Numbered from the stretch's first letter, positions 3,568 to 18,877 are shown. The stretch is DNA of 31,556 bases from Kiritimatiellia bacterium (GCA_017959645.1 JAGDAE010000205.1:1-31556), one strand, 5' to 3'. Notes: generated by a model from the sequence alone, not told the origin. Numbers and translations: made by a program.

Positions 3568-5462
3568 TGGCGCGCGGAATAACAGAAGCGGCAGTCGAAG
3601 AGATCAAATCCCGCATCGATCTCGCCGATCTGGCGGAGTCGTACGGCCTGCGGCTCAAACGCGCCGGTTCGAATGCGAAAGCGTGCTGTCCGTTCCACCA
3701 CGAGAAGACGCCGAGCTTCAACATCAATTCGGCCAAGGGCTTCTACCACTGTTTCGGCTGCGGAGAGTCGGGCGACGCGATAAAGTTCGTGCAGAAGCAG
3801 GAGGGGCTTTCGTTCGTCGAGGCGGTGAAGAAGCTGGCGGAGCGGTGCGGGATCAAGCTCGAAGAGACGGAAGATCGCGAATACGGCCGGCGCAACCGGC
3901 TTTACGCGCTGATGGCGGAGCTGGCGCAGTTCTACCGCCGGTGCCTAAAGAAGACGAAAGAGGCGCAGGCGGCGCGCGAATATCTCGCTTCGCGCGATCT
4001 TTCGGACGAGGTGCAGGAAGAGTTTCTGATCGGCTACGCGATGCAGGGGGCGTCGGCGATATTGAAGTGGGCGGAGAAGTACGGCTACGGCACGGAGGAG
4101 CTGGAGGCGGCCGGGGTGGTGAAGGCGCCCTCGCGCGCCGGCGGCGGCTGGTACCACCGGTTCGGCGGGCGGCTGATCTTCACGATCCGCGACCGCCAAG
4201 GGCGCGTGGTCGCGTTCTCCGGGCGCCAGCTGGTCGCGAGCAAAAACTCCGGCAAGTACGTCAATTCGCCGGAGACGGAGATATTCAAGAAGTCGAAGGT
4301 GCTTTTCGGGTTCGACAAGGCGGCGGCCAACATCGCGAAGTCACCGAACCGCGAAGCGATCGTCTGCGAGGGCCAGATCGACACGATACGTCTGCACTCG
4401 TGCGGCTTTCCGGTCGCGGTCGCTTCGCAGGGGACGGCGTTCACCGAAGAGCACGTGAAGGCGCTCAAGCGGGTCGCCGACGCGGCGGTTCTCGCCTTCG
4501 ACGACGACGCGGCCGGACACAAGGCGGCGATACACACGGCCGGGCTCATGCTCGCCGCGGAGATGCCGGTTCGGATCGCGCGGCTGCCGGACGGTGAAGA
4601 CCCGGATTCGTTTCTGCGCAAGCATGGGGCGGAAGGGTTCCGCAAGATTCTCGACGCCGCGGAATCAATCGTCCATTTCCAGTTCGGGGTCGAGCGCGGC
4701 AAGGAGCGCAACCCGGCATCCATCGACGCGGTAAACCGCATCTCGAAGGCTTTGTTGTCGACGATCGCGGCGTGTCCGAACGCGGTGATGCGCGCGAGCA
4801 TGGCGAACGAGGCGGCGAAGCTGCTGGGGCTGCCGGCTTCGGCTGTGAACGAGGAGCTTTCGCGCACGAAGCCGGAACGGCGCGATACGGCGCCGGAGGC
4901 GGAGACGGAGGAGGACGGCGGCGAGGCCGCAGCCGTGCCGGACGCGGAAAGCATGCCCGGCGGCGACGCGGCGGAGGCGATCGCGCCGCCGAAGGAGGAG
5001 ATGGCGTTTCTGCAGTTTCTGTCCGCGAACGTCCATTCGCCGGACGCCGGCGAGATACGCGGCATCGTGGACCGCTTCGTGCCGGATTCGGTTTTCGCGT
5101 GCGGTTTTTCGCAGCGTTTCGTGCAGGCGTGGCGCGAAGACTCGGCGAGCGGCTCGGATGGCGCGACGGAGAAGTTCGCGGCGGGGCTTTCCGCGCGCGA
5201 GCGCGGCTGGTACGACGCGACGCTGATAGGCGTCGACTGGCCGTCGTCGTGCGAGCTGGAGCCGGTCGAGATACTGCAGGACTGCGTGCGCGTGCTGTGG
5301 GCGCGGCGTTTGCGCAGGATGCAGGGCGAACTGCCGGCGAGAGGCGACGCCGGGGCGGACATGAAGAGGATAAAGATTTCGATGGAGCTGAAGCGCATCC
5401 GCCAGTCGGGATGGAGCGCGACGGCGAAGATCATAGAAGACATCATGAAAGGAGAATGCTGA
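3567..5462 (+). CDS. dnaG: DNA primase
   Basis: ATG 3567 overlaps the purB TGA and is in frame with ORF 3024..5462. CHC2 zinc finger CPFHHEKTPSF...CFGC, KYVNSPET, and TOPRIM motifs CEGQID and FDDDAAG. Confidence 0.96.
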
Positions 5463-6426: not shown

Positions 6427-6454
6427 GCGCAGCCGCGCAGAAAGGAAAAGAGAA

Positions 6455-8779
6455 ATGACGACAAAAGCAACACTCGCGCTGTTTGCCGCCCTGGCGGCCG
6501 GTCTCGCCGTCGCGCAGGATATCGGCGCCGGCCTCAAGGACGCCGCAAGACCGTATTTCAGGTTCGGCACGACGCTCGACCGCCGGCTGATCCACCCCGA
6601 TACGCGCTCGGCCGCCGAACTCGAGGCGATAACCGGCACGTTCGACACGATCACGCCGGAGAACGAGCTCAAGCCCGAGCGTCTGCTGAAGGGGAATGGC
6701 GAGTACGATTTCTCCGACGCCGACCGCTTCGTCGAATTCGGCGAGAGCAACGCGATGAGGATCATCGGCCACTGCCTCGTCTGGCACATGCAGACGCCAG
6801 CGTGGATGCACACCGCCGCCGACGGAACGCCGCTGCCGCGCGAAGAGGCGATCGAAAACCTGCGCAGCCACATTATGACTGTCGTCGGCCGCTACCGGGG
6901 GCGGATATACGGCTGGGACGTCGTCAACGAAGCCTGGATGGAGGACGGCACGCTTCGCGACTGCGGGTGGAGGCGCGCCATCGGCGACGACTACATCGAG
7001 CTGGCGTTCCGCTTCGCGCACGAGGCCGACCCGGACTGCGAACTGTACTACAACGACTACGCGATGGCCGAGCGCGCGAAGTGCGACGCCATAATCGGGA
7101 TGGTCGGCGATCTGCGCGCGAAGGGGGTCAGGATCGACGCGGTCGGCTTCCAGACGCACGTGTCGCTCTGGTATCCGGATATTTCCGCCTACGCGAAGTC
7201 GATGGATGACATGATCGCCGCCGGGATACGCTTCAACGTCACCGAGATGGATGTCGGCGTGCTGCCCGATCCGGCCGGGGACGACCTCAAAAACCTGTAT
7301 CCGTCCGAGGGGTTGCCCGACGGCGTGCAAGCGCGCCTCACCGAGCGCTACACGGCTTTCTTCACGGAATTCCTGAAACGCCACGAATGGATCGACCGCG
7401 TGACGTTCTGGGGGGTTACCGACGCCCAGAGCTGGCTCAACTACTATCCGGTCAGAGGCAGGATCAACCATCCGCTTCTCTTCGACCGCCAGGCGAGAGC
7501 GAAGCCGGTCGTCGCCGCGCTGCACCGTCTTATGACGGGCTGGAAGAACCACGGGCCGGGAATGCGCGTGGCTGAGATGCCGAGAATAACCTCGCTCGAG
7601 GCGTTCGCCGAGCGCGCCCCAGCCGCGTTCACCGACAAGGCGATCGCGTACGCGAAAGACGCCGGCTACAACGCCGTCTTCGTCAACGGCGGGTGCGGAT
7701 TCGGCTCCGACGCGATGCCGCCGGAATCGCTGGCCGTCACCGGGGCGATTCCGGATCTGATGCCGTACACGGCCGAGCGCAACATACGCGAGCTCAAAGA
7801 GCGCATCCGCAGGCTGTCGGACGCGGGGATGAAGCCGTGGCTCTGCTGGTGGACCGGCGTCGGCACCGACGAGAAGGGCAATCTCACCGATCCGCCCAAC
7901 ATACGCAGCCGCCGCGAAATCTACGCCAAGTACCGCAAGAATCCCGAGCTGTTCGGCGCGGGGCCGTGGTGGCGCTGGCGCGGCAACCGTCCGCTGTGCA
8001 TATCCAACCCGAAGGTCAGGGAGTTCTACCGCGAACTGTTCAGCCGGTTGCCGAAGGACTTTCCCGAGCTGGAGGGGCTGTTCTTCTTCCCCGGCGACGC
8101 GGAACTGGAAAACTGCACCGACGAATGCGAGACGTGCCGCGCGAGCGGACTCGGCCGCGTCGGGCGCATGGTGCGCTTCGCGAACGAGATCTACGATGCG
8201 TGGAATTCCGCCGCCGACAAGAAGCGGGCGTTCTACTACGCGTTCTGGAATCTCGACCAGCCGGGCGGAGACGGGCAGATACTCTCGTCGGTTCTCGAAG
8301 AGACGCTCCCCAACCTCGCCGCAGGGATGGGAATCGCCATGTCGATATGCGACAACACCGTCGAACGCAGGGTAACCGGCGACATAATCCTCAACCAGCC
8401 GTGGGGAACCTGCAACTCGATCGGCTCGCTTTTCAGGGCCATGATCGACTCGCCGAACGCCAAGGGCCGTCCGGTGATGGCGGTCTCGGAGATAAGCCAG
8501 AGCGAGCTGTTCGATCCCGTGTGCGCGAACATGCCGTTCGCGGTGTCGACGCTCGAGCTGATGCACAACCTGCGCAAGATACCGAACTGCGACGCCGTGG
8601 TCGACTTCTGGGGGAACCGTCCCCCGTACGGGCTTTCCGACGCGTCGCACGAAGTCATGAAGGGGTTCATGGACGTCGAGATCTCCGGCGGGGAGTTCGA
8701 CGACGGGAAGATTCTGCTCGACGCGGCGGCCAGGCACTACGGCGACGCGGCGCTGGCCGAAAAGGGTGTGGCGGCGTGA
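6455..8779 (+). CDS. Secreted GH10 endo-beta-1,4-xylanase-like domain fused to an unassigned C-terminal domain
   Basis: Signal peptide, then GH10 motifs TPENELKP, GHCLVWH, WDVVNEA (acid/base), YYNDY, GFQTH, VTEMDV (nucleophile) and TFWGVTD up to ~7530. About 410 further residues follow. Confidence 0.88.
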   Translation: MTTKATLALFAALAAGLAVAQDIGAGLKDAARPYFRFGTTLDRRLIHPDTRSAAELEAITGTFDTITPENELKPERLLKGNGEYDFSDADRFVEFGESNAMRIIGHCLVWHMQTPAWMHTAADGTPLPREEAIENLRSHIMTVVGRYRGRIYGWDVVNEAWMEDGTLRDCGWRRAIGDDYIELAFRFAHEADPDCELYYNDYAMAERAKCDAIIGMVGDLRAKGVRIDAVGFQTHVSLWYPDISAYAKSMDDMIAAGIRFNVTEMDVGVLPDPAGDDLKNLYPSEGLPDGVQARLTERYTAFFTEFLKRHEWIDRVTFWGVTDAQSWLNYYPVRGRINHPLLFDRQARAKPVVAALHRLMTGWKNHGPGMRVAEMPRITSLEAFAERAPAAFTDKAIAYAKDAGYNAVFVNGGCGFGSDAMPPESLAVTGAIPDLMPYTAERNIRELKERIRRLSDAGMKPWLCWWTGVGTDEKGNLTDPPNIRSRREIYAKYRKNPELFGAGPWWRWRGNRPLCISNPKVREFYRELFSRLPKDFPELEGLFFFPGDAELENCTDECETCRASGLGRVGRMVRFANEIYDAWNSAADKKRAFYYAFWNLDQPGGDGQILSSVLEETLPNLAAGMGIAMSICDNTVERRVTGDIILNQPWGTCNSIGSLFRAMIDSPNAKGRPVMAVSEISQSELFDPVCANMPFAVSTLELMHNLRKIPNCDAVVDFWGNRPPYGLSDASHEVMKGFMDVEISGGEFDDGKILLDAAARHYGDAALAEKGVAA

Positions 8780-13512: not shown

Positions 13513-13591
13513 CCGGGGCGTCGCGGCATGAATCGATGGTATAGGTTGAGGTTATGGGTCGGCTGAAAGATTTCCGATTGTCCTTTGGCCG

Positions 13592-13615
13592 GCGGGATGT
13601 GATACAATATCCCGC
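13592..13615 (+). promoter_or_regulatory. cysK promoter (extended -10 TGA-TACAAT) embedded in a 7-bp inverted repeat
   Basis: GCGGGAT-GTGATACAAT-ATCCCGC, with TACAAT at 13603-13608. RBS AAAGGAG precedes ATG 13657. Confidence 0.6.
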
Positions 13616-13656: not shown

Positions 13657-14580
13657 ATGGGCAAAGCTGCAAAGAATATTCTGGAGAAAGTGGGCGGAAC
13701 CCCGCTTGTCGAAATCTCCGGAAAACTGAACAAAGGCGGGGCGAAAGTTCTCGCCAAGGTCGAATTTTTCAATCCGGGCGGCAGCGTCAAGGACCGTATC
13801 GCGCTCGCGATGGTCGAGGCGGCGGAGAAGGACGGAACCCTGAAGCCCGGCGCGACGATCATCGAGCCGACCAGCGGCAACACCGGCGTGGGACTGGCGC
13901 TGGTCAGTGCGGTGAAGGGCTACCATCTCGTGCTGACGATGCCGGAGACGATGTCGATCGAGCGCCGCAAGCTCGCCGCGGCGTACGGTGCGGAAATCGT
14001 CCTCACGCCAGGCGCAGAGGGGATGAAGGGCGCGATCGCCAAGGCGGAGGCGCTTCGCGAGTCCACTCCTGGCGCGGTGATCCTGCAGCAGTTCGAGAAT
14101 CCGGCCAATCCGGCCAAGCACGAGGCGACGACGGGCCCGGAAATCTGGGCGGACACCGATGGCGAAGTCGCCGCTTTCGTGTCTGGCGTCGGAACCGGCG
14201 GCACGCTCTCCGGCGCGGGGCGCTACCTCAAGTCGAAGAATCCGGAAATCAAGATCTTCGCGGTCGAGCCGGATACCAGCCCGGTGCTCTCGGAAGGCAA
14301 GGCCGGTCCGCACAAGATACAGGGAATCGGCGCGGGGTTCGTGCCCAAGACTCTCGACACTTCCGTCTACGACGAAGTGGTCAAGGTCAGCGCCGAGAAC
14401 GCCGGCGCGGCCGCGCGCGCGGCGGCGGCGAACGACGGGCTGCTGGTCGGTATCTCGTCCGGAGCCGCCTTGTGGACCGCGCTGGAGCTTTCGAAGCGGC
14501 CGGAGTTCGCCGGCAAGACGATAGTCGCGCTTCTGCCCGACACCGGCGAGAGGTATCTATCGACCTGGCTGTTCGAATAG
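13657..14580 (+). CDS. cysK: Cysteine synthase A (O-acetylserine sulfhydrylase)
   Basis: PLP lysine motif NPGGSVKDRIA, EPTSGNTG, GVGTGGT, HKIQGIGAGF, PDTGERYLST. Confidence 0.97.
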   Translation: MGKAAKNILEKVGGTPLVEISGKLNKGGAKVLAKVEFFNPGGSVKDRIALAMVEAAEKDGTLKPGATIIEPTSGNTGVGLALVSAVKGYHLVLTMPETMSIERRKLAAAYGAEIVLTPGAEGMKGAIAKAEALRESTPGAVILQQFENPANPAKHEATTGPEIWADTDGEVAAFVSGVGTGGTLSGAGRYLKSKNPEIKIFAVEPDTSPVLSEGKAGPHKIQGIGAGFVPKTLDTSVYDEVVKVSAENAGAAARAAAANDGLLVGISSGAALWTALELSKRPEFAGKTIVALLPDTGERYLSTWLFE

Positions 14581-15656
14581 TGTCTCCGCTGCTGGAGAAG
14601 GCGGCCGCCAAGCCGCTCGCGCTGACGCGCCGGGAACTGGCCGGGATTCTGGCCTGGCCCGACGCGGAAGCCCTTTTTTCGGCAGCATATGCGGTGAAAA
14701 TCCGCGAAATCGGGCGCGCCGTATCCTTCAGAGGCCTGATAGAGTTCTCCAACATCTGCGCCAAAGACTGCTTCTACTGCGGAATCAGAAAAAGCAATGC
14801 CGGGACGAACCGCTACCGGATGGACGCGGACGAGATCGTGCGCGAGGCTAGATGGGCGTTCGACGCCGGGTACGGCAGCATTGTTCTGCAGTCGGGGGAG
14901 ATCGAGAGCGAGGAGAATACGGAATTCGTCGAGAACGTCCTCAGGCGCATACGGGCGTTCGGCGGCGACGGGTTCGGGGTTACTGCGAGCCTCGGCGAAC
15001 AGACGGAAGAAACCTACCGCCGCTGGCGCGAGGCGGGAGCGCACCGGTATCTGCTCAGGATCGAGACGTCGAATCCCGCGCTTTACGCGAAACTGCATCC
15101 TGCCAGCCATTCGTGGGAACGGCGCCGCGATTGCCTTCGCGCGCTGAGGCGCTGCGGATACCAGGTCGGAAGCGGGGTGATGGCCGGGCTGCCCGGGCAG
15201 ACGCTGGACGATCTTGCCGCAGATATCGAATTCTTCGCCGCCGAAGATCTGGACATGATCGGAATGGGGCCGTACGTACCCCACTCCGGAACGCCGCTCG
15301 GCAAAGACGCGCCATGGACGCCGCAGGTGCGTAAAGAGCGGCTGGAACTCGGGTTGCGGATGATCGCGGCGACCCGGCTCTATCTGCACGACGTCAACAT
15401 CGCGGCGGCAACCGCATTGCAGGCAATCGACCCGGAGGGACGCGAGAAGGGGCTTCTCGCCGGAGCCAACGTGATCATGCCGAACATGACCGGCGCGCGC
15501 TATCGCGCAGACTACCGGCTCTACGACGGCAAGCCGTGCGTCGGGGAAGACGCGGAGACGTGCCGAGACTGCATCGGACGGCGCATTGCCGCTCTCGGCG
15601 AGACGGTGCTTACGAACGCGAGAGGCGATTCTCCGCATTGGAGGAAACGATGGTGA
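14580..15656 (+). CDS. hydE: [FeFe]-hydrogenase maturase HydE-like radical SAM enzyme
   Basis: GTG 14580 overlaps the cysK stop. RGLIEFSNIC, CxxxCxxC (CAKDCFYC), YLLRIET, DMIGMGPY, GANVIMPN, YRLYDGK, and a C-terminal CX7CX2C (CVGEDAETCRDC). Confidence 0.85.
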   Translation: MSPLLEKAAAKPLALTRRELAGILAWPDAEALFSAAYAVKIREIGRAVSFRGLIEFSNICAKDCFYCGIRKSNAGTNRYRMDADEIVREARWAFDAGYGSIVLQSGEIESEENTEFVENVLRRIRAFGGDGFGVTASLGEQTEETYRRWREAGAHRYLLRIETSNPALYAKLHPASHSWERRRDCLRALRRCGYQVGSGVMAGLPGQTLDDLAADIEFFAAEDLDMIGMGPYVPHSGTPLGKDAPWTPQVRKERLELGLRMIAATRLYLHDVNIAAATALQAIDPEGREKGLLAGANVIMPNMTGARYRADYRLYDGKPCVGEDAETCRDCIGRRIAALGETVLTNARGDSPHWRKRW

Positions 15657-17386
15657 ACGAGGAAGGAATATCCCGAGAGGAGGCACTGGCGCTGCTGAAG
15701 CCGGAGCGCCGGGCGGAACTGCGCGAACGGGCGCACGCGACGACGCTCGCCTGCGTCGAAAAACGGTTCGATTTCTGTTCGATAATCAATGCGCGATCGG
15801 GAGGCTGCACCGAAGACTGCAAATGGTGCGCACAGTCCGCACGCTGGAAAACCGGCTGCGAAACCTACGGCTGGGTCGGCGCCAAGGCGTGCGTAGAGGC
15901 GGCCAGGGCGGCAGAAGCGAACGGCGCCGATAGGATAGGCATCGTCACTTCCGGACGGCGCCTTTCGCCCGGCGACGTCGAAAAAGTCTGCGAGGCGCTG
16001 CGCGAAATGCGCAAGGCGACGGATATCGGCCTTTGCGGTTCGCTGGGTCTGCTCTCCGAAGAGGATCTCGTCCGGTTCAAGGCGGCTGGGTTGCAGCGCG
16101 TGCATTGCAACATCGAGACCGCGCCGTCGCTTTTTCCGTCGCTCTGCTCCACGCATGCGACTGGGGACAAGCTCAAGACGATCCGGGCGGCGAAGCGGCT
16201 AGGGTTCCAGATATGCTGCGGCGGCATAATCGGCATGGGCGAAAGCGACGAGCAGCTGGTCGAATTCGCATTTGCCCTCAAAGAGATCGCGCCTGATTCG
16301 ATTCCGGTGAACGTTCTGCATCCGGTAGAGGGAACACCGCTCGGGAACAATGGTATTCCAGACCCCGAGCGCGTAATCGATTCGGTGGCCATTCTGCGGC
16401 TCGTAAACCCATCGACGCCGCTGCGTTTCGCGGGCGGCAGGCGGGACATGTCGGACGAAACGGCGGCGAAGTGCGTCTACGTTGGAATGTCGGCCGGCAT
16501 CGCAGGTCCGCTGCTGACGACGCCGGGCGCCGATTTCGACGACGACCGGGAACTAGCCGTGCGCGCTGGCTATGCCGTCGGCGGAGGGAGCGCGGCCAAA
16601 CTTGAACGCCTGCGCGCCGCATTGCGCGAAGCGGGCAGCGCCGTCGTCGCATTCTCGGCCGGCGTCGATTCGACTTTCCTCCTGCGCGTCGCCAAAGACG
16701 AGCTCGCAGACCGCGTCGTCGCCGCGACAATACGCTCGCCAGCGATGCCGGCACGGGAGATTGAAGAGGCGGTTGCATTCTGCCGCGCGGAGAAGATACG
16801 CCATGAAATCGTCGATATCGACGAGCTTGCGGTGCCAGGATTCGCGGAGAATACGCCGGAGCGATGCTATTTCTGCAAGAAGGCGGTGTTCGAAAGGATT
16901 CTCGAACTTGCGAGACGGAACGGAATCGGAAAGGTGCTGGAGGGGTCGAATCTCGACGACGATCGCGACTGGCGTCCAGGCCGGCGCGCGATCGCAGAGC
17001 TTGGCATCGGAAGCCCGCTCCGCGATGCGAGACTGACGAAAGCGGAAATCCGCCAACTTTCAAAGCGGCTCGGGCTTGCGACCGCCGGTAAGCCGTCGTT
17101 CGCCTGTCTCGCCTCGCGTTTTCCGTATGGCGAACGCATAACCGCGGCCGGACTTGAACGGGTGGAAAAGGCGGAGCGATGGCTCCTCGGCGCCGGGTTC
17201 GGACTTTCCCAGTTGCGCGTGCGTTCGCACGGGAACATGGCCCGTATAGAAGTTCCGACTCCGGACATTCCGCGTCTCGCTGCCAAAGCGGGCGAAATCG
17301 CCGTCGCGCTGGAGAGATTGGGGTTCGCATATGTTTCGCTCGATCTGCGGGGCTATCGCTCTGGCAGCATGAACGAGACGCTGTAG
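15650..17386 (+). CDS. bioB: Biotin synthase BioB (aa ~1-310) fused to LarE-type ATP-dependent sulfur transferase (aa ~317-578)
   Basis: BioB half: SIINARSGGCTEDCKWCAQS, LCGSLG, CCGGIIGMGE, SIPVN, LRFAGGR, LLTT. LarE half: PP-loop AFSAGVDS, RCYFCK, GSNLDD..DWRPG, KPSFACLASRFPYG, QLRVRSH, GYRSGSMN. No stop lies between the halves. Confidence 0.92.
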   Translation: MVNEEGISREEALALLKPERRAELRERAHATTLACVEKRFDFCSIINARSGGCTEDCKWCAQSARWKTGCETYGWVGAKACVEAARAAEANGADRIGIVTSGRRLSPGDVEKVCEALREMRKATDIGLCGSLGLLSEEDLVRFKAAGLQRVHCNIETAPSLFPSLCSTHATGDKLKTIRAAKRLGFQICCGGIIGMGESDEQLVEFAFALKEIAPDSIPVNVLHPVEGTPLGNNGIPDPERVIDSVAILRLVNPSTPLRFAGGRRDMSDETAAKCVYVGMSAGIAGPLLTTPGADFDDDRELAVRAGYAVGGGSAAKLERLRAALREAGSAVVAFSAGVDSTFLLRVAKDELADRVVAATIRSPAMPAREIEEAVAFCRAEKIRHEIVDIDELAVPGFAENTPERCYFCKKAVFERILELARRNGIGKVLEGSNLDDDRDWRPGRRAIAELGIGSPLRDARLTKAEIRQLSKRLGLATAGKPSFACLASRFPYGERITAAGLERVEKAERWLLGAGFGLSQLRVRSHGNMARIEVPTPDIPRLAAKAGEIAVALERLGFAYVSLDLRGYRSGSMNETL

Positions 17387-17413: not shown

Positions 17414-18877
17414 ATGAAACGGTTTTGCGAGGTGGAGAAGATGCTGGCGGCGCGCAAGCCCGACGGAGCGCCGCGCGGCAGGTTCTCGCCCGGCGATACG
17501 GTCGGCGAATGGAGCATATGCGCTTTTCTCGGGCGCGGACTTTCCGCCGAAGTCTACCGCGTCGTCAATCTGCGCTTCGGACAGGAGGGCGCGCTCAAGC
17601 TGCTTGTCGACGGCTCGCGCGGACTTCGCGAGCGGTTTGAGACCGAGTCGGACGCGATACGCTTTCTGTCGATGAGGACCTTGCCGCGGTTCATGGGGTC
17701 CGGCGAGGTCGGCGGCGCGCCGTACTATGTGATGGAATATCTCCGCCCGCTCCCCGATCCGATGCCGCGCCGCGAGATTCCGAAATTCATGAATGGGGTC
17801 GCGAAGGCGCTGCAGATGCTTCACGACGCGGGATATATCCACCGCGATCTCAAGCCCGGCAACGTTCTGGTGAGGGCGAACGGAGAGCCGGTTCTGATCG
17901 ATCTCGGACTGATCAAGCGGCGCGGCGAGGCGGTCGGCGATCCGATAGTCAGGCACGGACGCAATATCTCCATAATCGACGGCAAGCCGGTCGGCGTCGG
18001 CACGCTGGACTACGCCGCGCCCGAACAGCTTCTGCGTGGCGAAGCATCGGTGCAGAGCGACGTGTTCGCGCTGGGAAAGATGCTGATGGCGCTCTACGGC
18101 GGCAGACCTCCGCGCAGCGTCAGGCCAGTAATCAGATGCGCGACGAGGGAGCATCCGTCCGACCGGTACTGTTCGGCGGACGAATTCGCGACGGCGCTCC
18201 GGCACCGCAACTATTCGCGCATGGCTTTCGCGCTGATGGGCGCTACCGCGCTCGCCGCCGCCGCGCTTTTCCCGCTCTTCTGGCCGCATGTCGCCAGATT
18301 TCTGGTTCCGCTGCTCAATTCTCCGGAGCAGGTCCTCACGATCAGACAAAGGCCGGACGAGTCGGAAGCGGCGTATTTCTCGCGGATGCTCTCCCGCGCT
18401 CGGAATGGCGATTCCCAAGCGCAGATCGCGGTCGCCGAGGCGCATTTCTACGGGCGCGGCACGCCGACGAACCGCGTCGCCGCGGTAGAGTGGTACCGAA
18501 CGGCGGCGGAAGCCGGCGAAACCGATGCGCAGGCGTCGCTTGGGCTTTGCCTGTTTAGGGGGATTGGCTGCGAAAAGAACTCCGTACAGGCGGTGAAGTG
18601 GTGGAAAGCCGCCGCTGAGAAAGGCAATCTCAGCGCGATGAACGACTACGCATTCTGTCTGATGCACGGCTTCGGAGTCGGCAGAGACGTCGATGCGGCG
18701 TTCAAGTGGGCGCTGTCCGCGGCGGTGCGCGGACACGCGCCGTCGCAGACATTTGTCGGCGAATGCTATATCGACGGCCGCGGCGTGGAAAAAGACATCG
18801 ATCGCGGCGAAACATGGCTCTATCGCGCCGCCAGACAGGGCAACAAGAGAGCGCAGACGCTGCTCGAAACGAGATAA
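17414..18877 (+). CDS. Hanks-type Ser/Thr kinase with transmembrane helix and four Sel1-like repeats
   Basis: LGRGLSAEVY, ALK, HRDLKPGNV, IDLG, GTLDYAAPEQ, SDVFALG; hydrophobic ALMGATALAAAALFPLFW; four repeats of the A-x5-G-x-G-x6-A-x-x-W-x3-AA-x-x-G type. Confidence 0.9.
   Translation: MKRFCEVEKMLAARKPDGAPRGRFSPGDTVGEWSICAFLGRGLSAEVYRVVNLRFGQEGALKLLVDGSRGLRERFETESDAIRFLSMRTLPRFMGSGEVGGAPYYVMEYLRPLPDPMPRREIPKFMNGVAKALQMLHDAGYIHRDLKPGNVLVRANGEPVLIDLGLIKRRGEAVGDPIVRHGRNISIIDGKPVGVGTLDYAAPEQLLRGEASVQSDVFALGKMLMALYGGRPPRSVRPVIRCATREHPSDRYCSADEFATALRHRNYSRMAFALMGATALAAAALFPLFWPHVARFLVPLLNSPEQVLTIRQRPDESEAAYFSRMLSRARNGDSQAQIAVAEAHFYGRGTPTNRVAAVEWYRTAAEAGETDAQASLGLCLFRGIGCEKNSVQAVKWWKAAAEKGNLSAMNDYAFCLMHGFGVGRDVDAAFKWALSAAVRGHAPSQTFVGECYIDGRGVEKDIDRGETWLYRAARQGNKRAQTLLETR

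Follow-up and report, generated by a model that had tools for sequence, protein, structure and literature searches.

Familiar gene arrangements around cysteine-derived sulfur include the cysK operons controlled by Rrf2/CymR and the pairing of a desulfurase with its acceptor, of which yrvO-mnmA of Bacillus subtilis is an example. Three further systems bear on the locus we report here. The [FeFe]-hydrogenase maturase HydE: its substrate is the HydG product [Fe(CN)(CO)2(cysteinate)], which contains cysteine, and the sulfur of that cysteine reaches the H-cluster (PMC8855341). The Type II biotin synthases (BioB): these have a [4Fe-5S] auxiliary cluster with an acknowledged unknown source of sulfur, and searches of gene neighbourhoods for a helper have failed (PMC10813225). 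The [4Fe-4S]-dependent LarE of the nickel-pincer cofactor pathway: this type is defined in Thermotoga maritima by a CxxC...C motif, and the enzyme is recharged from cysteine via a desulfurase (PMC9283937). We analysed a stretch of DNA of 31,556 nucleotides (hereafter the window) that constitutes contig C184 in the metagenome-assembled genome (MAG) of an uncultured rumen Kiritimatiellia bacterium, an assembly of 1.97 Mb in 306 contigs that is 76% complete. Positions 13657-17386 of the window are occupied by three plus-strand genes, cysK, hydE and a fused bioB::larE. On balance, these probably constitute a lineage-specific co-expressed operon, in which four ordinary single-copy housekeeping functions share cysteine-derived sulfur while each keeps its canonical job. 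The locus is most likely not a new pathway and, all four enzymes being ordinary, needs no new chemistry: what is new in the operon and in the BioB-LarE fusion is the way in which known parts are put together.

The cysK, hydE and bioB::larE genes and their counterparts in relatives

The features of the locus are the following:

13657..14580, plus strand: cysK, O-acetylserine sulfhydrylase (cysteine synthase A), 307 residues; TIGR01139, PALP domain
14580..15656, plus strand: hydE, [FeFe]-hydrogenase H-cluster radical S-adenosylmethionine (SAM) maturase, 358 residues; TIGR03956, 3CIW alignment
15650..16597, plus strand: BioB domain of the fusion, residues 1-316; TIGR00433, Type II BioB structures 8VDW/8VCW
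16598..17386, plus strand: LarE domain of the fusion, residues 317-578; TIGR00268, aligned to 5UDQ/6B2O
13578..13608, plus strand: candidate promoter upstream of cysK, read by eye; TTGTCC, 19 nucleotides, TG-n-TACAAT

The gene overlaps claimed in the preliminary description hold at both junctions. At the first (TAGTG) the GTG of hydE at 14580 begins on the last G of the cysK TAG (14578-14580), a 1-nucleotide overlap; at the second (ATGGTGA) the bioB ATG at 15650 precedes the hydE TGA at 15654-15656, a 7-nucleotide overlap, with the sequence GGAGGA 5 nucleotides 5' of this ATG. The cysK gene begins with an ATG at 13657 behind an AAGGAG Shine-Dalgarno sequence, and its product, which displays the pyridoxal phosphate-lysine motif SVKDR, scores 438.5 bits against the NCBIfam equivalog TIGR01139 (curated cut-off 351). 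A dedicated paralogue of cysteine synthase can be ruled out, as this is the sole cysK match in the whole assembly.

In 40 species of the order to which the source belongs, we mapped LarE and HydE and searched their flanks with the source genome's own proteins. The hydE sample comprises 36 loci; a wider sample of LarE comprises 80 loci from many phyla, seven of Kiritimatiellia type (L087-L093) and 73 others. Homologues of the BioB are named Kiritimatiellia, and the nearest LarE loci are those of rumen or gut MAGs labelled Kiritimatiellae, Lentisphaerae or Verrucomicrobia. Across the relatives a small set of sulfur genes, namely cysK, metY, mnmA, larE, hydE and bioB, accompanied by pdxT and in some cases by an Rrf2 gene, recurs in varied orders in at least four families. 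The abutting cysK-hydE pair of the window is seen again in G022; other genomes show pdxT-hydE-larE (G018), mnmA-larE-hydE-metY-cysK on one strand throughout (G026), mnmA-larE-hydE (G036), larE-hydE (G035) and metY-x-cysK-x-larE-x-bioB (G003), the small open reading frames (ORFs) between cysK, larE and bioB in the last (L035:6130-7056, 7994-8719 and 4168-5055) having no NCBIfam match. At least one sulfur gene of the set lies within about 7 kb of hydE at 13 of the 36 loci, as against two loci, in G028 and G031, at which hydE abuts hydG.

The larE gene has three kinds of home in these genomes: the canonical larE-larB-larC operon (G008, G012, G016, G032); a place beside bioB, often with cysK, metY or pdxT (G003, G006, G011, G021, G040); and a place beside hydE (G018, G035, G026, G036). 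All seven Kiritimatiellia-type loci have larE and bioB adjacent, with cysK upstream in three. At the 73 other LarE loci, the genes found within 8 kb encode LarB/LarC (20 loci), MetY (about 12), CysK (about 11), the PatB C-S lyase (4), MnmA (4), HydE (3) and BioB (1). Given the CysK, MetY and PatB neighbours, together with a PatB::LarE fusion, LarE is broadly linked to genes of cysteine metabolism, and this fits the recharging of T. maritima LarE from cysteine via a desulfurase (PMC9283937). In a single order, therefore, hydE, larE, mnmA, bioB, cysK and metY make up a mobile yet persistent neighbourhood that points to common control by sulfur or cysteine: its members seem to have been reshuffled repeatedly with the theme kept, which is suggestive of shared control, and one related locus has an Rrf2-type regulator.

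The place of hydE next to mnmA, the gene for the tRNA 2-thiouridine synthase, is a separate observation. The two genes stand together in both orders at eight of the 36 hydE loci (L056, L058, L060, L063, L070 and L043, and as mnmA-larE-hydE at L049 and L050), and they abut, again in both orders, in G003, G006, G013, G019, G032 and G039. We are aware of no rationale that would connect hydE with the PP-loop sulfur transferases.

The single promoter that had been proposed ahead of all three genes could not be shown: a scan for the sigma-70 consensus called none upstream of cysK, and the candidate listed above, with TG-n-TACAAT at 13600-13608, was read by eye. Overlapping it is a block at about 13556-13600 (GTCGGC...GATT.GTCCTT..GC) which, on alignment, is partly kept upstream of cysK in G003 (L035) and L087 and could be a promoter or operator. 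The sole intragenic terminator-like match, at 14160-14173, is a 5-bp stem, and shuffled sequences there yield more matches than observed. At its gathering thresholds, Rfam detected neither riboswitches nor RNAs of other kinds in the window, which also has no tRNAs.

In the operon that we favour, CysK would make cysteine. HydE, with HydG and HydF encoded elsewhere, would process [Fe(CN)(CO)2(cysteinate)], such that the sulfur of cysteine would pass to the H-cluster of an [FeFe]-hydrogenase. The BioB domain would insert sulfur into dethiobiotin, probably via an auxiliary [4Fe-4S] cluster with an extra sulfide, and the LarE domain would thiolate the nickel-pincer precursor made by LarB, using its own [4Fe-4S]+sulfide cluster and ATP, after which LarC would complete the cofactor. 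Translational coupling and gene fusion would tie the co-expression of these enzymes to cysteine supply, and the operon would be a reshuffled form of the sulfur-themed neighbourhood that recurs in this Kiritimatiellia order. The gene identities, the overlaps, the single copies, the partner genes elsewhere, the recurring adjacencies and the phyletic patterns are observed; what we infer is that the genes are co-transcribed, that sulfur or cysteine status regulates them and which type of auxiliary cluster the BioB has. The preliminary description had proposed a co-regulated sulfur-cofactor module: comparison of genomes supports the module, in that the same genes neighbour each other in varied orders in several families, whereas the co-regulation itself is something we infer.

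Several observations weigh against such an operon. The exact order cysK-hydE-bioB::larE is in no other genome or contig examined, these being 41 relatives and about ten metagenomic contigs with BioB/LarE fusions. The sigma-70 scan identified neither promoter nor operator with confidence, and no Rrf2 gene adjoins the operon among the genes of the window. The large-subunit domain of the hydrogenase HydA (PF02906) has no match in the 76%-complete MAG. Neither cysK nor hydE lies near the fusions P0005, P0007, P0009 and P0013, and on the short contig of P0004, with its unassigned genes, no recognisable sulfur gene adjoins the fusion. Lastly, the recurrence of the fusion in both domain orders hints at something beyond shared regulation.

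A part of this would be expected if the arrangement were neutral, that is, the outcome of rearrangement in a small streamlined rumen genome, with the fusion as a tolerated accident and neither shared regulation nor benefit. The uniqueness of the exact order and the want of an identified regulatory element in the Rfam and sigma-70 scans agree with this, and the fusion loci free of cysK and hydE mean that part of the arrangement may indeed be neutral shuffling. The flanks, too, are unrelated to the sulfur set: upstream are genes for a thioesterase-fold protein and a cupin, and downstream those for a Sel1-repeat Ser/Thr kinase and then thrS. We nevertheless regard a neutral origin as unlikely, since this handful of sulfur genes is found repeatedly by hydE or larE, in different orders and across four families or more. 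The 13 of 36 hydE loci with such a gene compare with a chance expectation of a few percent, a rough estimate (about five such genes, a 2.5-Mb genome and a 15-kb window) made with no formal test and on kin that are not independent. The stop/start overlaps at both junctions are, moreover, typical of selected translational coupling, and the cysK-hydE abutment recurs in G022. The preliminary description had associated chance juxtaposition with a gene order unique to this genome: the order as a whole is indeed unique, but the pairwise links within it recur in relatives.

The BioB and LarE domains and their fusion

The fused gene is one uninterrupted frame of 578 residues, with a linker of about eight residues (AVGGGSAA) between the BioB and LarE domains. 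The BioB domain scores 335.9 bits against TIGR00433 over residues 7-308, above the curated cut-off, and its best solved matches are the Type II structures 8VDW and 8VCW (about 217 bits, versus 150 bits for Escherichia coli 1R30). It has the radical SAM cysteines C53/C57/C60 in the motif CTEDCKWC, and alignment to 8VDW/8VCW gives C43, C129 and C189 as ligands of the auxiliary cluster, along with H152 and S131 as in Type II; these ligand columns are invariant or nearly so in an alignment of homologues (A3). Position 97, however, is Gly (RIGIVTSG) where Type II has Ser, such that the motif defining Type II is absent, and a CC doublet is present at 189-190. Gly at this position corresponds to 'Type G', an uncharacterised motif in the scheme of Lachowicz et al. 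(PMC10813225). By its motifs, we file the domain as an anaerobe-type, Type II-like 'Type G' BioB and not as Type II; its auxiliary cluster is probably a [4Fe-4S] with an extra sulfide, as in Type II. Since bioA and bioF are found by tblastn on contig C170, dethiobiotin is the expected substrate of this domain. Among other Type II-like BioBs, the metagenomic P0264, P0271, P0302 and P0375 bear N-terminal extensions of 200-260 residues that have no NCBIfam match and are not LarE, BioA, BioC or BioF.

The LarE domain scores 313.4 bits against TIGR00268 (threshold 150) over residues 317-575 of the fusion. Its alignment with the LarE of Lactiplantibacillus plantarum (5UDQ/6B2O) extends from end to end, and it has a PP-loop, SAGVDS, of the SGGxDS class. 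The CxxC...C motif is formed by C406/C409/C486 of the fusion (C90/C93/C170 of the domain), and 53 LarEs show no variation in the columns of either motif. To bind the P2CMN phosphate, the L. plantarum enzyme uses S180, R212 and R214, whose counterparts here are the Ser in CLASR and the Arg-x-Arg in LRVRSHG; R207 and R209 are likewise invariant across the 53 LarEs, whether larE sits by larBC, bioB or hydE. The domain is thus predicted to be a [4Fe-4S]-type PP-loop ATP-dependent sulfur transferase. It is the only LarE of the genome, which retains larB and larC together on contig C175:8336-10131, both above cut-off, and hence the LarE domain is probably needed for the nickel-pincer cofactor pathway. 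LarA (Lar_N) has no match in the 76%-complete MAG and is found in 20 of the 41 relatives. Across the 41 genomes, LarE tracks LarC, not BioB: all 18 LarC-positive genomes have LarE, LarE co-occurs with LarC in 18 of 21, and just three LarE-positive genomes are without LarC.

Fusions of BioB with LarE make up about ten protein clusters of independent metagenomic origin. Together with the intact frame, these fusions, found in at least ten clusters from independent samples, rule out an assembly or frameshift artefact. Nine clusters have the order LarE(N)-BioB(C), which is to be expected as neighbouring larE and bioB genes lie just 4-11 nucleotides apart. The order BioB(N)-LarE(C) is seen only in the window and in P0009; the two proteins are colinear and 68% identical with the same junction, which may reflect one event or merely the natural ends of the domains. 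In a quick BioB tree, weakly resolved by its approximate likelihood-ratio (SH-aLRT) support, the fusions are scattered among free BioBs, and P0009 falls in a different family group from the source window; the fusion thus probably arose several times, the number of events being uncertain. The gene for P0012 has cysK directly upstream, and that for P0011 has Rrf2/cysK-metY-DUF3034-RidA upstream. In the open-access literature, a search of which is no proof of novelty, we found no report of a fusion of LarE with biotin synthase.

Both proteins have other fusion partners: LarB, LarC, HAD, ThiF/TcdA, an MnmA-like protein, a TIGR04100 radical SAM protein and PatB for LarE; BioA, BioF and BioC for BioB. 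Two of these are of separate interest: P0124 (689 residues) unites LarE with a PatB-family C-S lyase, and P0125 (478 residues) unites it with a TIGR04100 'rSAM_pair_X' radical SAM protein. In a relative, a small gene of the same TIGR04100 type (L019:6951-7559) and the stop codon of a free bioB overlap. As naturally occurring constructs, the BioB-LarE and LarE-BioB fusions lend themselves to probing the sulfur supply of the anaerobe-type biotin synthase.

The fusion raises the alternative that LarE is the physiological sulfide donor for BioB: its [4Fe-4S] cluster would take up cysteine-derived sulfane sulfur and recharge the auxiliary cluster of the Type II or Type G BioB, directly or via a thiocarboxylate product, with CysK feeding the relay. 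If true, this would explain the origin of the fifth sulfide in the [4Fe-5S] cluster, in one lineage at least, the source in Type II BioB being one that published neighbourhood searches failed to find (PMC10813225). It would account for the adjacency of larE and bioB at the seven Kiritimatiellia-type loci and in five further relatives, and for fusions in both orders (LarE-BioB in nine clusters, BioB-LarE in the window and P0009) that are scattered among free BioBs. In both proteins, furthermore, an extra sulfide is bound at a [4Fe-4S] site formed by three cysteines (PMC10813225; PMC9283937).

The distribution of the two proteins argues otherwise. In G004, G007, G009 (93% complete), G013 (92%) and G022, no LarE is detectable alongside a BioB of the same type (59-82% identity across the BioB domain), and a more distant one (42% identical) is without LarE in G034 (98% complete); conversely, ten of the 41 genomes have LarE without BioB, and 18 of the 21 with LarE have LarC. 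From these phyletic data, an obligate role of LarE for BioB is unlikely. The fused LarE, moreover, is the only one in a genome that keeps larB-larC, and the genome of the P0013 fusion likewise has LarB. The LarE domain keeps its residues for binding the nickel-pincer precursor, invariant in all three settings of the gene, and outside Kiritimatiellia BioB comes within 8 kb of LarE at just one of the 73 loci. LarE-BioB fusions may arise trivially from gaps of 4-11 nucleotides, and, as noted above, BioB also fuses with BioA, BioF and BioC, and LarE with many partners. A complex prediction for the BioB domain (alignment A3) with the LarE domain (A2) gave a score of 0.00 in a run without controls and weighs neither way. 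We therefore consider a donor role for LarE, with cysK as its feed, to be doubtful, and less probable than neutral rearrangement. A weaker addition to it is that HydE, often encoded by larE or mnmA in this order, would also use the sulfur-trafficking hub.

HydE and the hydrogenase maturation genes

The HydE of the operon scores 322.5 bits against TIGR03956 (equivalog cut-off 254.6) and matches T. maritima HydE (3CIW) over residues 29-341 with 278 bits (E 8.6e-82). Its radical SAM CX3CX2C motif is C60/C64/C67. The C-terminal CX7CX2C, which the protein was said to retain, is indeed present as C320/C328/C331, aligned with the second-cluster cysteines of the Thermotoga enzyme. The assembly has no second gene of the HydE class. 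As had been observed, the window is without hydF, hydG and hydrogenase genes; elsewhere in the genome HydG (contig C111, 409.5 bits) and HydF (contig C97, 412.8 bits summed) are both found above cut-off, one of two findings that the preliminary description had named as counting against its reading, and hydA is not found. HydA (PF02906) is present in 34 of the 41 relatives and in 19 of 24 congeners; four other relatives (G001, G011, G022 and G038) have HydE with no detected HydA, and G009 and G015 (86-93% complete) have neither. The missing HydA is most simply a gap in the 76%-complete MAG, because HydA is common in relatives and congeners and the genomes that lack HydE are also without HydA. 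The HydE of the operon is most likely a normal maturase, not an orphan.

The suggestion of an orphan HydE-like radical SAM enzyme, working with BioB/LarE on a new substrate other than that of H-cluster assembly, draws on the missing HydA in this MAG and in those four relatives, and on hydE lying beside mnmA, larE, cysK or metY more often than beside hydG in this order, but it is very improbable for a single-copy, full HydE equivalog that aligns with a solved HydE including both cluster motifs, in an incomplete genome with HydG and HydF above cut-off and with HydA in most of its relatives.

The recurring neighbourhood of hydE and the sulfur genes links H-cluster maturation genetically to cysteine supply, consistent with the cysteine-containing intermediate of HydG and HydE. 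Two further loci in these genomes are of note in their own right. At L039 (G040:C107, 3168-9862) two Fe-hydrogenase-like (PF02906) genes come within 3-5 kb after larE-bioB, a sulfur cluster and hydrogenase-family genes thus standing together. In the source genome (G000), C160:337-1233 and 6443-7492 place a radical SAM gene resembling HydG/ThiH (177.8 bits against HydG, under the cut-off) about 5 kb from one of two mnmA-like genes, another neighbourhood of a radical SAM gene and a PP-loop sulfur transferase.

The rest of the window and comparison with known systems

The downstream gene for the Ser/Thr kinase, which has four Sel1 repeats (17414-18877), begins 27 nucleotides past the end of larE, an interval free of terminator-like sites, and may be co-transcribed with the operon. 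At the contig end, positions 1-2000 have a guanine-cytosine content of 0.45-0.51, versus about 0.63 elsewhere, and hold ORFs without a Pfam match (2-754, 756-1265 and 1180-1818); this may be foreign or mobile DNA.

Each component of the operon has a well-described counterpart. HydE resembles that of T. maritima (3CIW/3IIZ; TIGR03956) in its full-length match and in the same CX3CX2C and CX7CX2C motifs, with HydG and HydF in the genome; it differs in that its gene lies between cysK and bioB::larE, away from the other hyd genes, and in that HydA was not found in the incomplete assembly. The BioB domain has its best solved matches in the Type II enzymes of Blautia obeum (8VCW) and Veillonella parvula (8VDW), with which it shares the E. 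coli-43 Cys, the C128/C188 equivalents and His161/Ser140 (B. obeum numbering), as well as an anaerobic host (PMC10813225). Unlike these, it has Gly97 in place of Ser, the CC doublet at 189-190 and the LarE fusion, and its cluster type is a prediction.

The LarE domain shares the PP-loop and the phosphate-binding Ser/Arg/Arg with the [4Fe-4S] LarE of T. maritima (PMC9283937) and the sacrificial LarE of L. plantarum (5UDQ), and larB and larC are in the genome. The third Cys of its CxxC...C is offset by one residue from Cys176 of L. plantarum, as in the cluster motif of the T. maritima type. In contrast to both, it is the C-terminal domain of a biotin synthase, encoded apart from larB-larC in a MAG in which no LarA was found.

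As a whole, the operon resembles the cysteine-regulon and sulfur-trafficking clusters, in which genes for cysteine synthesis lie beside those for consumers of activated sulfur, and an Rrf2 gene stands beside the related P0011 locus. It differs from these in having no regulator or desulfurase within the operon, and in that its consumers are the enzymes of the H-cluster, of biotin and of the nickel-pincer nucleotide, two of them fused in a single protein.

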